From: Alphaproteobacteria bacterium
Lineage (GTDB): Bacteria; Pseudomonadota; Alphaproteobacteria; SP197
Length of the DNA stretch: 64,000 nucleotides
NCBI GenBank assembly: GCA_964291265.2
Contig: OZ219747.1
Location: 2,432,001-2,496,000 of the forward strand
Reading direction: 5' to 3'
Each line of letters opens with the position of its first letter. Within the stretch, counting starts at the first letter, position 1. The translations under genes were made by a program, and so were the position numbers. Under the pieces are notes generated by a model. That model searched no databases and had not been told where the DNA came from. It was given only the letters and a program-made list of their open reading frames with translations. Below are positions 16,474 to 32,253 of the stretch, in pieces.

Positions 16474-18075
16474 ATGGCGAGGTACTTTCTGACGAAGACG
16501 CCGGTTGATCCGGGTTCCCTTGTGGAGGTCGGTGGGGCTCCGGTTCTGGCGCGCCATGATGTGCTGATGCAGGCGTTGTCGGGGGTGGCGGAGCCTGCGA
16601 GCGCGAGTGTTCTGGCGGAGCCTGTGCTCAGTCTTGGCAACGACCGGGCGGCGGCGACGGTGTCGTGGTACACCAGCCATGCCGGTGAGGCGCAGCGTCT
16701 GTCGGACCTGGACCCTGACCGCCGTGAGGCGGTGGAGTCTGTGTTGCGCGTGCGCCTGGCGGATGTTGCCCGTGGCCTGTCGGATCCCACGTTCGGGGCC
16801 CTGGTGGGCGGTGCGCTCAATGTGATGGACCCTGGCGATGTGTGGGTTGTGTCAGGTCAGCCGGTTGTGGTGGGCTGGGGCATGGCGCCCGGTGATGTGG
16901 CGCGGGATCGGCATTTTGCGGCGACCATGGGGCGGTGGCTTGCGTTGGCGCCGCGGGATGCGCCGTTGCCGCCTGCGGAGAGGGCTGATGTGCCGCCACC
17001 CCCTCCTCCTCCGCCCGTGGTGACGGCAGGGGGAGGCGGCGTCTGGCGCTGGGTGCCTCTGGCGCTGCTGTTGCTCGTGACGGCGGCGGTGCTGGTGTGG
17101 TTGCTTCTGCCGGGCACGCGGGTGCTGCCTCCGGAGCCCCGGGAAGGAGTTGTGGGGGATGCCGAGGCGCTGCGCATGGTGCGCGAGGCGAACGCCGCCC
17201 TGGAGAGCCGGATCGTGGAACTCGAGATGGCGATTGCCGGTGCGGTGTGTCTTGCCGATGGCGAGCTGGAGTTGCCGGACGGGCGCCGTCCCGAGGACAT
17301 CCTGCCGCCGCTTCCCGGAGTTGCCGAGGCGCCGTCGGGTTCCCGCCGGGGCGAGTCGGAGGCGTCCCTGGCGGAGCCGGCGACGCTTCTGGAGTTGATC
17401 GAGGAGCGCACGGTCATGGTGGTGGCCGGTGACGGTGAGAGGCTGAGCCTGGGGAGCGGTTTCTTTGTTGCCGGGGATCTGGTGATGACCAACGAGCACG
17501 TGGTGTCGGGCAAGGGGGGGATCGGTGTTCTCAACAGGTCTCTTGGGTTCCTGCATCGGGCCGAGGTTGTGGGCCTTGACGGTCCCATTGAGGCGACGGG
17601 CGGCGACTTTGCGCTGTTGCGCGTGGCGGATGCGGACCAGCCGTTCTTTTCCTTCGTGGAGGCCGAGGGTTCGCTGCGTCTTCAGTCTGTCATTGCGGCG
17701 GGCTATCCCGATCTCATCGTGAGTTCGGATGCGGCGTTCATTGCCCTGATGGAGGGTGATGCCGCCTCGATTCCGGATGTGGCGCTGACGGAGGGGATTG
17801 TCAGCGCGGAACAGGCTCTCCGGGCGGCCCCGGGTGTTGTGGCGGACGTGTTGATTCACACGGCGGACATATCCAGGGGCAATTCCGGCGGTCCGCTGAT
17901 TGACCGGTGTGGCCGCGTGGTGGGGGTCAACACGCTGACGCGTTCGGACGACGAGGTGATGCGGCGTCTCGACATTGCGCTGCGGGCGTCGGGCGCCGTG
18001 GACTTTCTTGAGGCGGCGGGTGTTCCCGTGGTGTCGGGCGGGGAGGCGTGCGCGCCCGCGGCGCCTGACGGGTGA
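16474..18075 (+). CDS. SrfA-like N-terminal domain + TM + trypsin-like (S1) serine protease
   Basis: Catalytic triad GSGFFV...TNEHVV (H), GDFALL (D), GNSGGPL (S); poly-Pro linker and TM; N-terminus is paralogous to 18919..20112. Confidence 0.85.
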   Translation: MARYFLTKTPVDPGSLVEVGGAPVLARHDVLMQALSGVAEPASASVLAEPVLSLGNDRAAATVSWYTSHAGEAQRLSDLDPDRREAVESVLRVRLADVARGLSDPTFGALVGGALNVMDPGDVWVVSGQPVVVGWGMAPGDVARDRHFAATMGRWLALAPRDAPLPPAERADVPPPPPPPPVVTAGGGGVWRWVPLALLLLVTAAVLVWLLLPGTRVLPPEPREGVVGDAEALRMVREANAALESRIVELEMAIAGAVCLADGELELPDGRRPEDILPPLPGVAEAPSGSRRGESEASLAEPATLLELIEERTVMVVAGDGERLSLGSGFFVAGDLVMTNEHVVSGKGGIGVLNRSLGFLHRAEVVGLDGPIEATGGDFALLRVADADQPFFSFVEAEGSLRLQSVIAAGYPDLIVSSDAAFIALMEGDAASIPDVALTEGIVSAEQALRAAPGVVADVLIHTADISRGNSGGPLIDRCGRVVGVNTLTRSDDEVMRRLDIALRASGAVDFLEAAGVPVVSGGEACAPAAPDG

Positions 18076-18902
18076 GGGGGCGTGGCGGCCTTGTGGCGGC
18101 GTTGGTCGGGGTGCCGGTGCTTGTCGTGCTGGCGCTGTGGATTGCCTCGCTTCTTCTGGAGAGTTGCGCCCTTGGTCCACTGACCCGCTGGCTGGGCGCC
18201 TGTCCGTCGGCGGCGGTCGGCGTCTCGGGTGACCTCGATGCCGAGATGGAGCACACCGGCCGCCTGGAGGACCGGGTGCGTCGGCTTGAACGCCATCTGG
18301 CGCTGTTGCGCGACTGTCCCCGGGTGCTGCCGGAGCCGCCCCCCGCAGGCCCGCAGCCCGTGCCTGCGCAGGAGCCTTCTGCGCCCCCGGAAGAACCGCT
18401 CCCCGCAGACGATTCCGACCCGCCGGAGGAGGACCGGTTGCCGGCGGCAGACGAGGAGTCGTCGGAATTCGACGAGAGGCTGGAAGACCAGGAGGGAGAG
18501 GTCAGCGAGGAGTTGACGGTGACGCTCATCTGGAATGATGAATCCGATCTCGACCTTGAAGTGCACTGCCCCGGAGGCGGGGCGGTGGGGGTCGTTGCGC
18601 AGGGCTGTGGCGGCGGCATTCTCGACGTGGACGCCAACGGATATGGATCCGGAGGCCTGAGGATGATGGCAAGGCCTGTGGAGAACATCCGTTTTCGCAG
18701 AGAGGCGCCGGAAGGAGAATACTGGGTCCGCATCTTCATTGCGGAAGCCTACGAGACGTCCCGAGGAGATGATCGCCGGCGCAACCTGGGACGCCATCCG
18801 TTCAGTGTCAGGGTCATCTCGCGGGGAGAAGCGACAGTGTTCGAGGGTTTTCATGAAGGCCTCGGTCGTGGTGATGTCTGGCTGAGTTTCACCCACGAGT
18901 GA
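18072..18902 (+). CDS. Membrane protein with coiled coil and C-terminal DUF2135/YfaP-like domain
   Basis: N-terminal TM, acidic Pro-rich linker, VTLIWNDESDLDLEVHCP...LDVDAN...PVENI...GEYWV. Confidence 0.7.
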   Translation: MRGRGGLVAALVGVPVLVVLALWIASLLLESCALGPLTRWLGACPSAAVGVSGDLDAEMEHTGRLEDRVRRLERHLALLRDCPRVLPEPPPAGPQPVPAQEPSAPPEEPLPADDSDPPEEDRLPAADEESSEFDERLEDQEGEVSEELTVTLIWNDESDLDLEVHCPGGGAVGVVAQGCGGGILDVDANGYGSGGLRMMARPVENIRFRREAPEGEYWVRIFIAEAYETSRGDDRRRNLGRHPFSVRVISRGEATVFEGFHEGLGRGDVWLSFTHE

Positions 18903-30655: not shown

Positions 30656-32253
30656 CACTCCGGCACCTGATGGCGCGAGCGTTGCTGGCGGCCTCCCTGG
30701 TCGCTCCACCGGTGGCATCTGCCGCTGCGGAAACTGCCGTCACATGGGAAAGCCGGTTCTGGGACCGGACCGGCAACGCCGATCTGGTGCTGCCGTTGCC
30801 CTGTGGTGGCGCCATGGCCTTCCAGCGTGTCGACACGCCGGTTCCCGGAGGAAATCCGGCGAGCGACCGGCCGGTACAGATGGGCCTTGCCACGAGCGAG
30901 GCAGGTTATGTCGACTATCTGCGCCGCGCCTTCATCCGGGGCGGGTTCAGCAATCCCGAGGATGCCTCCGCGTTCTACTACATCGCCCGCTACGAACTCA
31001 CCCGCGATCAGCACGCGGCGCTCCTCGGCAACTGTTCCCGGCCCTCTCTTGCCGGCACGGTTCCGGCCTCCGGTCTTTCCTGGTTCGATGCTGTCGACGC
31101 GGCAAGGCGCATGACCGAATGGCTGCGTCAGAACGCGCCTCAGACACTGCCGCACGAGGACGGGACTCCAGGCTATGTCCGTCTGCCCACGGAGGTCGAG
31201 TGGGAATACGCCGTGAGGGGTGGGGCGGCTGTCGACGGGTCCGTCTTCAACCAGCGCACCTACCCTTTCGACGGACCCATGCGTGACCATGGCTGGCACC
31301 AGGGAGCGGATTCGGCACGTGGGCAACTGCGTCCCGTGGGCGTCCTCGATCCCAATCCACTCGGTCTGCACGAGGTTTATGGCAACGTCGAGGAGATCAT
31401 GCTCGAACCCTTTCGGCTCAACGCCCTGGGACGTCTGCACGGACAGGCAGGTGGTGTGGTCACCCGCGGCGGCTCGATCCTGTCGCGTGCCTCGGAACTG
31501 TCGAGCGGTCTGCGCCAGGAGTTTCCGGCCTATTCCATGGCGGGGGGCAAACCGGTGGCTCTCGACACCTTCGGGGTGCGGTTCGTGATCGGCATTCACC
31601 TGTCGCTGTCGACGGCACGGATCAACCGGTTGAGGAATGCCTGGCTCGATCGCTTCAACGACGGCGGCGACACCGACACCGACGCGAGCCTGACGGAGAT
31701 TCTCGACGTTCTGATCGCCGAGGAACTCGAACTCGAACGGCGCCTCGTCCTGGAAACGGCGCGTCTGCGCGCAACGGAGGACGCGCGCGAACGCGAGGCC
31801 AGCCGGCTTGAGGCCATGAAGGCGCTTGCCATCGGTGGTGCCGTCCTCGTGCAGTTCCTTCGCGAGGACAGTTCCGGGATCGAGCTTGCGATCCGTGCCA
31901 TCGCCACCTTTGACGCCGCCATCGATGAAGCAGAAGCCAGCGACGGACTCGTCGGCGATGAGGCAATCGATCGGCTCATCGACAAACGTGAAGCGGTGAG
32001 GGCCGGCCTGGCAGACCGGGAGTCCCGCTTCGCTCTCAATTTCCTGGGCTACAGGAGAAATCTGGTCACGAGCGCCACGGGCTACGATCGGGAGGAACGT
32101 GACCAGGCACTCGGCATCCTTCTGAAGGAACTGGAACTTTCCGGCAGGACAGGCCTCATACCCCTCGTCCGGGACTTTCACGAGGACATTGCAACCTACG
32201 CCGCCAATCCGTCCCTAGAGACCCCGAAAATCCGGGCCCTTGCCCTCGAGTGA
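30652..32253 (+). CDS. FGE-sulfatase (SUMF1-fold) protein, TagR-like, with C-terminal helical extension
   Basis: Signal peptide, LVLPLPCGGAMAF, RLPTEVEWEYAVRGG, PNPLGLHEVYGNVEE, TRGGS, FGVRFV. Confidence 0.82.
   Translation: MTLRHLMARALLAASLVAPPVASAAAETAVTWESRFWDRTGNADLVLPLPCGGAMAFQRVDTPVPGGNPASDRPVQMGLATSEAGYVDYLRRAFIRGGFSNPEDASAFYYIARYELTRDQHAALLGNCSRPSLAGTVPASGLSWFDAVDAARRMTEWLRQNAPQTLPHEDGTPGYVRLPTEVEWEYAVRGGAAVDGSVFNQRTYPFDGPMRDHGWHQGADSARGQLRPVGVLDPNPLGLHEVYGNVEEIMLEPFRLNALGRLHGQAGGVVTRGGSILSRASELSSGLRQEFPAYSMAGGKPVALDTFGVRFVIGIHLSLSTARINRLRNAWLDRFNDGGDTDTDASLTEILDVLIAEELELERRLVLETARLRATEDAREREASRLEAMKALAIGGAVLVQFLREDSSGIELAIRAIATFDAAIDEAEASDGLVGDEAIDRLIDKREAVRAGLADRESRFALNFLGYRRNLVTSATGYDREERDQALGILLKELELSGRTGLIPLVRDFHEDIATYAANPSLETPKIRALALE

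Follow-up and report, generated by a model that had tools for sequence, protein, structure and literature searches.

A proposed split PpkA-TagTSR-like sensor block joined to srfABC in an alphaproteobacterial genome without type VI secretion matches

Results

The window, a 64,000-nucleotide stretch of contig OZ219747.1 from an alphaproteobacterial genome, carries a ten-gene operon at 16474-32253 in which srfABC-type genes precede homologues of the periplasmic sensor of a type VI secretion system (T6SS). The host genome comprises 4.83 Mb in two contigs, is rated 100% complete, and has the window on its 4.4-Mb contig. All ten open reading frames (ORFs) lie on the + strand, flanked by an rluD-type gene and an M23 peptidase gene; six of the nine gene junctions overlap (-4 or -1), and the other gaps are 16, 3 and 11 nt. 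Genes 5 and 8 start at 23208 and 28749, with 23220 as an alternative start for gene 5. Pfam profiles matched gene 1 (Trypsin_2, 3e-20), gene 4 (SrfB, 7e-303), gene 5 (Virul_Fac, 2e-245), gene 7 (VWA, 1e-5), gene 8 (ABC_tran), gene 9 (FtsX), and gene 10 (FGE-sulfatase, 8e-22). An earlier note on this DNA, made from the letters alone, had labelled the genes in the same way, and Pfam and NCBIfam searches of the ORFs bear it out for SrfB, SrfC, trypsin, VWA, ABC, FtsX, and FGE, and in part for SrfA; the motifs it had named are all present in the operon proteins and conserved. A scan of the operon for promoters and terminators gave signals at chance level.

The ten genes are real and intact, and their order is conserved across Alphaproteobacteria. 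A scan for SrfB found 20 loci (48-93% identity, in relatives labelled Alphaproteobacteria), 17 of which have the order srfB-srfC-gene 6-vWA-ABC-permease-FGE, the remaining three stopping at contig ends; the gene order thus recurs elsewhere, as the note's reading required. In an even sample of the class, 19 of 351 genomes have SrfB, as do 10 of 18 genomes of the same genus, and among close relatives SrfB identity is 89-93% with stable synteny. Counted over the stretches around srfB, with one locus split over contigs and one over two sites, the 19 loci all have SrfC and the gene 6 domain, 17 each have vWA, the permease, and SrfA-N, 16 have FGE, 11 have trypsin, and 10 have a TagQ-like gene. In one genome (G055; L055, L135) the cluster occurs as two intact parts, srfA-srfA-srfB at 1.66 Mb and srfC to tagR at 2.10 Mb. 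No signature of horizontal transfer was seen in the operon, as third-position GC content is 0.71-0.80 and close relatives have the same flanks. Elsewhere the cluster is carried on plasmids (144 records, 114 of them Klebsiella); a Klebsiella pneumoniae plasmid (L111:1128-17983) has the full cluster between insertion sequence (IS) elements with the tagQ pair in front.

Gene 7 (26791..28737) encodes an exported vWA protein homologous to the whole periplasmic part of PpkA and has no kinase. Its profile finds matches in 13 of 351 genomes of the phylum, of which six are the C-terminal parts of proteins of ~1000 amino acids (aa) with an N-terminal kinase. Over the C-terminal ~620 aa of these six, gene 7 is 30-33% identical (E 4e-80 to 2e-88). 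All six have a Pkinase domain and are followed by ABC, permease, and FGE genes; the one fused locus that was scanned also has PppA, TagF, TssM, TssL, and a glycine-zipper TagQ lipoprotein as neighbours. Gene 8 (28749..29462), a TagT-like ABC ATPase with Walker A, signature, Walker B, and H-loop all present, gene 9 (29459..30655), a TagS-like permease of the FtsX/MacB type with four transmembrane helices, and gene 10 (30652..32253), a TagR-like exported FGE-fold protein with a C-terminal helical region, are 43-46, 28-30, and 29-34% identical to the neighbours in the fused loci and stand in the same order, which upholds the likeness to PpkA and TagT/S/R that the note had proposed. These comparisons were made against six kinase-fused T6SS loci and not against PAO1 itself; we take the six to be of the Pseudomonas H1 type because their TagR loop fits the PAO1 residues given in the available text of PMC13713981. 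The search for longer forms of gene 7 spanned 1135-3240 aa, a range outside which the ~1000-aa PpkA falls. The only membrane-related feature of gene 7 is an N-terminal signal-like segment, and the protein would therefore need a membrane partner.

Gene 6 (25877..26794) stands immediately upstream and has no Pfam match. Its model has a confident beta domain of ~100 aa, a linker, one long transmembrane helix (153-171), and a helical-repeat, Sel1-like domain with a YDP motif; the beta domain finds only unnamed Atlas clusters, under 0.9. Homologues of gene 6 have Sel1/TPR, in keeping with the note's description of a Sel1-like membrane protein; the note gave it no role, and we propose one as a membrane link. 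A script located a Sel1-like domain of the gene 6 type directly upstream of the free vWA gene in 45 of 49 loci (47 when two loci that it missed but that show the domain are counted), some 20 of the 49 being close kin; the six fused PpkA loci lack this domain. The T6SS locus of Tistrella mobilis pTM1 (NC_017957.2; L110:11496-18471) has tagF-pppA-kinase, a free vWA gene, and tagTSR, and the C-terminal end of its kinase consists of a transmembrane helix and a domain which has the YDP motif and to which the gene 6 C-terminal profile gives 68.9 bits. As a control, 150 high-scoring generic Sel1 proteins, taken from a search with that same profile which generic Sel1 repeats dominate, gave a best single repeat of 57.9 bits (median 34) and a YDP motif in two. 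A third form, found in two genomes of one genus, joins a 1000-aa tubulin-like protein (PF13809) to a transmembrane-Sel1 protein, vWA, tagTSR, and TagQ-SH3, and the block is seen with three alternative architectures in all. In the tubulin-like form (L132:6121-17395, L134:5562-17420), the transmembrane-Sel1 protein is small and has an N-terminal cysteine cluster, and FecR, GH3, and TonB receptor genes adjoin. Mesorhizobium pMLa (L059:17145-26049) has srfABC and two gene 6-like genes, then PAN-domain genes and GH3, with no vWA-Tag block. We suggest from the gene anatomy that gene 6 occupies the place of the kinase and transmembrane parts of PpkA and is a candidate transducer, which is new here.

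The sensor set also includes a TagQ-like lipoprotein, which is displaced in this genome. A search with a profile of the lipoproteins that follow tagR elsewhere located it at C2:3965439-3966203 (E 1.7e-28); a second lipoprotein gene follows it, and the pair (C2:3964915-3966203, - strand; L085:2916-4204) lies 1.5 Mb from the operon and ~2 kb from a transposase-like gene pair. In a relative, G675, the pair finds its best matches in the two genes immediately behind tagR (52% and 53% identical), and three close relatives keep the pair at the same distant site (71-86%). The displaced pair is orthologous to the post-tagR pair, and so the sensor set is complete here. A Roseobacter genome searched with this genome's TagQ-like query gave no match. 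In another genome (G367; L082:9520-18681) a free vWA-tagTSRQ module with an S41 peptidase gene after it forms a very long branch, and neither SrfB nor TssC was found in that genome.

Searches of the complete host genome found no TssC, Hcp, Pkinase (PF00069), or FHA match, and tblastn no PppA, TagF, or TssM. The earlier note had recognised no tss, fha, pppA, or tagQ gene in the window; this is correct for the window and, as regards tss, fha, pppA, and the kinase, for the genome as a whole, but not for tagQ. Nor does the cluster always accompany a T6SS, since the host has none and TssC is absent from 8 of the 18 other SrfB-positive genomes; in the 10 that have it, TssC and the cluster are on different contigs or are separated by about 90 kb or more. 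SrfB is found in none of the six genomes with fused PpkA. A quick tree of 46 ectodomains places the six fused PpkA proteins on one shallow branch and the Tistrella pair on a second, and it spreads the Srf-linked free forms over the deep diversity. Grouping the T6SS-linked forms together is weakly rejected (approximately unbiased test, p-AU 0.029, 23 rows), the tested group having been named after the first tree was seen. Both trees come from quick searches, are unrooted with a weak backbone, and had near-duplicates dropped (to 46 and then 23 rows).

SrfB (PF07520; gene 4, 20112..23204) and SrfC (PF10139; gene 5, 23208..25880) match their families over the full length, with srfC directly after srfB, and neither protein has a signal or a transmembrane helix. 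The DxGNSR, DxGGGTTD, and GRPS motifs of SrfB, which we take to be the phosphate-1, phosphate-2, and adenosine motifs of the actin/Hsp70 fold, occur in 24 of 24 homologues, and on this basis SrfB is likely an ATPase of the Hsp70/actin type. In SrfC, a GxSQxGKS-type G1 and the G3 motif DLLDFPG are found in 26 of 26 homologues and the G4 motif TKFD in 20 of 26. The predicted structure of SrfC (predicted local distance difference test, pLDDT, 84.8; predicted TM-score, pTM, 0.80) shows a G domain, enlarged by an insert of ~200 aa, together with a long helical stalk, and Foldseek with this model returned the dynamin superfamily for all 37 matches listed, the best being SynDLP (E 2.8e-8). We therefore describe SrfC as a predicted dynamin-like GTPase. 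PDB sequence searches with SrfB, SrfC, and gene 7 gave nothing useful.

Genes 1 (16474..18075) and 3 (18919..20112) resemble SrfA in part. They match only the N-terminal ~170 positions of NF040486 (18-173; E 2e-7 and 4e-15), and the scores of 30.6 and 56.1 bits are under the cut-off of 150, so that they fall outside canonical SrfA. Our own profile and transmembrane prediction place an SrfA-N domain, predicted to be cytoplasmic, and a following transmembrane helix (194-212 in gene 1, 195-213 in gene 3) upstream of srfB, with trypsin and DUF2135-like ectodomains in place of the lipocalin-like C-terminal domain of canonical SrfA. In gene 1, a coiled segment leads to a trypsin-like protease whose triad is intact (H342/D378/S471); as it comes after the transmembrane helix, it is predicted to be periplasmic. 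Gene 3 ends in a cysteine-containing DUF2135-like ectodomain, and gene 2 (18072..18902) has an N-terminal membrane anchor and a DUF2135-like ectodomain with no SrfA-N. The ~125-aa domain common to genes 2 and 3 (34% identity) has no Pfam match, and its Atlas look-alikes are DUF2135-labelled clusters at 0.91-0.92; gene 2 is an additional copy of the gene 3 ectodomain that is specific to the lineage. In close relatives, receptor genes 1-2 (or 1-3) occur as tandem duplicates (L001:3622-8734, L006:3558-8782, L008:832-8731).

In a collection of 90 SrfA-N proteins that is biased to close kin, 88 have the transmembrane helix after SrfA-N, and the ectodomains are DUF2135-like (28), trypsin (26, with the serine motif kept in 25), lipocalin-like (20), vWA (10), or other (6). 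The family looks like a set of interchangeable receptors that share a single cytoplasmic dock. In one Klebsiella SrfA-N protein, the C-terminal domain carries an annotation of the tellurite-resistance type. A comparison of SrfA-N with the PpkA kinase domain gave a probability of 0.5, though its register sets the conserved xWG against DFG; a preprint calls SrfA-N a non-catalytic kinase-like fold (bioRxiv 10.64898/2026.09.18.752743), and the kinase-like fold is taken from the available text of this preprint.

Downstream of the operon, positions 35592-40652 of the window hold a complete rRNA operon (16S, two tRNAs, 23S, 5S, tRNA). The M23 peptidase ORF (32421-35846) overlaps the start of the 16S gene, and its true start must therefore lie further in. 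ORFs of identical length (344 and 555 aa) are repeated many times across C2, consistent with abundant IS copies.

Discussion

The operon is an intact, conserved variant of a gene cluster that has been known since 2013 but never explained. We suggest that it forms a split-receptor envelope-damage sensor of the TagTSR-PpkA type that drives the dynamin-like SrfC under the control of SrfB, in place of the kinase and the T6SS; we regard this proposal as evenly balanced between right and wrong. The available text on Pseudomonas describes a TagR dimer modelled to join two PpkA ectodomains and so to dimerise the kinase (PMC13713981). By analogy, damage to the outer membrane would lead the TagQ-like lipoprotein to stabilise a TagR dimer, a step for which the ATPase activity of TagS/TagT would be needed, and the dimer would bind two free vWA proteins. 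The vWA protein may then dock on the Sel1-like domain of gene 6, such that genes 6 and 7 would amount to PpkA in two parts, and clustering of gene 6 would unite its cytoplasmic beta domains. Together with the SrfA-N domains of genes 1 and 3, which would act as docks at the membrane, these beta domains could recruit SrfB and SrfC to the damage, where SrfC may oligomerise on the inner membrane and seal or remodel it. The SrfA ectodomains (protease, DUF2135-like) would serve as exchangeable periplasmic inputs or helpers. The earlier note had likewise wired a Tag/vWA sensor to an ATPase and a GTPase; the homology of the sensor stands, but the protease output that it added does not. Trypsin is present in only 11 of 19 loci and is thus not a core output, and we rejected that role for it.

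Several observations weigh against our proposal. The TagR loop that is needed in Pseudomonas is three residues shorter here and divergent. The kinase-transmembrane-Sel1 form, which guides our view of gene 6, came to light only in Tistrella and in one further genome nearly identical to it (L131). Gene 6 is kept in loci that lack the vWA-Tag block (G065, G315, and Mesorhizobium pMLa) and srfABC stands alone in Rahnella, so that the sensor is not obligatory for SrfABC. A PDB profile search with SrfB found no match, and hhalign aligned it with HscC over 26 columns only (probability 8.8); the TM-scores of the SrfC model to dynamins are low (about 0.2 of query). TssC occurs in 10 of 19 SrfB-positive genomes and 61 of 332 others (71 of 351 overall; p 0.001), a test that ignores kinship and genome size, both confounders. 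Finally, Xenorhabdus SrfABC is reported, in the available text of PMC6950479, to form a complex and to be toxic to eukaryotic cells.

As to origins, TagQRST-vWA may be an ancient, modular receptor for envelope damage, most often coupled to an SrfABC dynamin/Hsp70 machine as its output, with the transmembrane-Sel1 adaptor leading to at least three outputs (SrfB/SrfC, a tubulin-like GTPase, and a Ser/Thr kinase). The tit-for-tat T6SS sensor of Pseudomonas would then have been borrowed through a split stage like that of Tistrella, perhaps twice, and SrfABC would be a signal-triggered dynamin for membrane repair or defence instead of a secreted virulence factor. We hold this reconstruction tentatively, as somewhat short of an even chance; its direction is read from breadth only, the trees being unrooted.

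Among other explanations, the nearest in kind is a defence or conflict system, in which the same sensor would detect an attack by phage injection, contact-dependent killing, or predation, and dormancy, death, or counter-attack would follow through SrfB/SrfC and the periplasmic protease, along the lines proposed for conflict systems centred on GTPases. It differs from a damage sensor driving SrfC mainly by outcome and not by wiring. The patchy presence of the cluster in the class and the genus, its carriage on plasmids, the exchangeable ectodomains, the tandem duplication of genes 1-2, and the higher frequency of TssC in carriers would all fit, and the tubulin-like alternative output parallels the HSP70/tubulin themes described in the available text on GAP1-N2 systems (PMC7159879). 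However, PADLOC matched no system beyond generic ABC and protease domains, Pfam found no nuclease, TIR, or pore effector among the operon proteins, and synteny is stable in close relatives at 89-93% SrfB identity. The 'conflict system' of the earlier note finds no direct support, and we consider a defence role unlikely. A machine for trans-envelope assembly or quality control, working in a housekeeping-like manner without a damage trigger, would draw on SrfB/SrfC for chaperone and membrane-shaping power, on vWA/TagRST for capturing periplasmic clients, and on the protease for removing failures. It accords with the chaperone-type parts (Hsp70-like motifs, a vWA resembling a metal-ion-dependent adhesion site, a protease) and with the dynamin-Hsp70 gene pairs noted for cyanobacteria in the text available from PMC5827413, and yet a lipoprotein like TagQ, which senses damage in Pseudomonas, is encoded with the cluster in 10 of 19 loci and retained even when displaced, and the cluster is missing from 8 of 18 congeners. 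Such a role seems to us improbable.

That SrfABC acts on eukaryotic cells as a tripartite toxin, with the ABC/vWA/FGE block as its dedicated maturation and vesicle-export module, we judge quite improbable. The Xenorhabdus cytotoxicity and complex formation speak for it, as do the toxin-export interpretation in the preprint's available text (bioRxiv 10.64898/2026.09.18.752743) and the host-associated distribution in Deltaproteobacteria given in that of PMC3608642. Against these, all parts of the block, in their order, have their homologues in a signalling module and not in an exporter; it also serves kinase and tubulin-like outputs; SrfA is membrane-anchored and SrfB and SrfC have no export signals; and TagS/T are described, in the text available from PMC13713981, as having no effect on TagQ/R localisation in Pseudomonas. 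Hardly credible is a remote regulator or remnant of the T6SS threonine-phosphorylation pathway. The presence of TssC in 10 of the 18 other SrfB-positive genomes, compared with 71 of 351 overall, is in its favour, but TssC lies far from the cluster in those ten, none of the fused-PpkA genomes has SrfB, all the operon genes are intact, and the complete host genome, with no TssC, Hcp, kinase, FHA, or PppA match, contradicts this reading there. We have rejected it.

If our proposal of a split damage sensor driving SrfC is correct, both SrfABC, which for two decades has been labelled a 'virulence factor' with no mechanism attached, and TagQRST would gain a testable function. It would also name the missing transducer, explain the origin of the retaliation sensor of the H1-T6SS, provide hosts that are T6SS-free and non-pathogenic (Cereibacter, Roseobacter, Gluconobacter) for dissecting that sensor, and present a bacterial dynamin that has a trans-envelope trigger of its own.

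Comparison with known systems

The cluster has been described before. According to the available text of Campbell et al. 2013 (PMC3608642), srfABC occurs with tagQ/R/S/T and ppkA in host-associated Deltaproteobacteria mostly without a T6SS, PpkA being taken as a kinase; that of Sun 2019 (PMC6950479) notes the same srfABC neighbours for Xenorhabdus stockiae. For a Haemophilus parainfluenzae cluster, the preprint (bioRxiv 10.64898/2026.09.18.752743) predicts an SrfABC complex and, in its available part, reads the block as a Lol-like toxin-export module. The available text of a 2026 review (PMC13584744) has TagQRST studied only in Pseudomonas and makes no mention of Srf, Sel1, or vWA, and that of PMC13713981 describes the role of TagS/TagT in Pseudomonas as still to be defined. 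In the literature searched, with subscription papers outside its scope, we found no proposal of a split PpkA with a transmembrane-Sel1 adaptor or of a dynamin output. As far as the available texts describe the published srfABC-tagQRST-ppkA neighbourhoods, the present operon shares with them the gene set around srfB/srfC, the usual lack of a T6SS, and SrfA as a single-pass membrane protein; it differs in that gene 7 has no kinase, tagQ is displaced, and two SrfA paralogues are found, with trypsin and DUF2135-like ectodomains instead of lipocalin.

With the H1-T6SS pathway of P. aeruginosa (TagQRST-PpkA-Fha1-PppA), as set out in the available text of PMC13713981, the operon has in common TagT/S/R, a TagQ-like lipoprotein, the PpkA periplasmic part, and the order ppkA-tagT-tagS-tagR. 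Here, in contrast, there are no kinase, Fha, PppA, or T6SS matches, the ectodomain is a free exported protein encoded after the transmembrane-Sel1-like gene, and tagQ has a second small lipoprotein gene after it. The Tistrella mobilis pTM1 locus shares the free vWA gene, tagTSR, and an upstream transmembrane protein with the same Sel1-like domain, but it belongs to a T6SS, and the cytoplasmic part of that protein is a Ser/Thr kinase.

Pfam holds GAP1 models, and the ten operon proteins have no Pfam match to GAP1, FNIII, DnaJ, or GrpE. The GTPase-centred GAP1-N2 conflict systems (Kaur et al. 2020, PMC7159879), so far as their available text goes, also pair a GTPase with HSP70 or tubulin as alternatives and have transmembrane proteins with variable ectodomains, vWA, and trypsin; the likeness is one of analogy and not of homology. 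SrfC, for its part, has the G1/G3/G4 motifs and the G domain with a long helical stalk of bacterial dynamins (SynDLP, BDLP, the Campylobacter DLP pair, IniA, LeoA), while differing from them in its 8-12% identity, the ~200-aa insert in the G domain, the lack of a transmembrane helix, and its link to a periplasmic sensor. An Hsp70-type neighbour is common to SrfC and the 'chaperone clade' described in the available text of Jilly et al. 2018 (PMC5827413).

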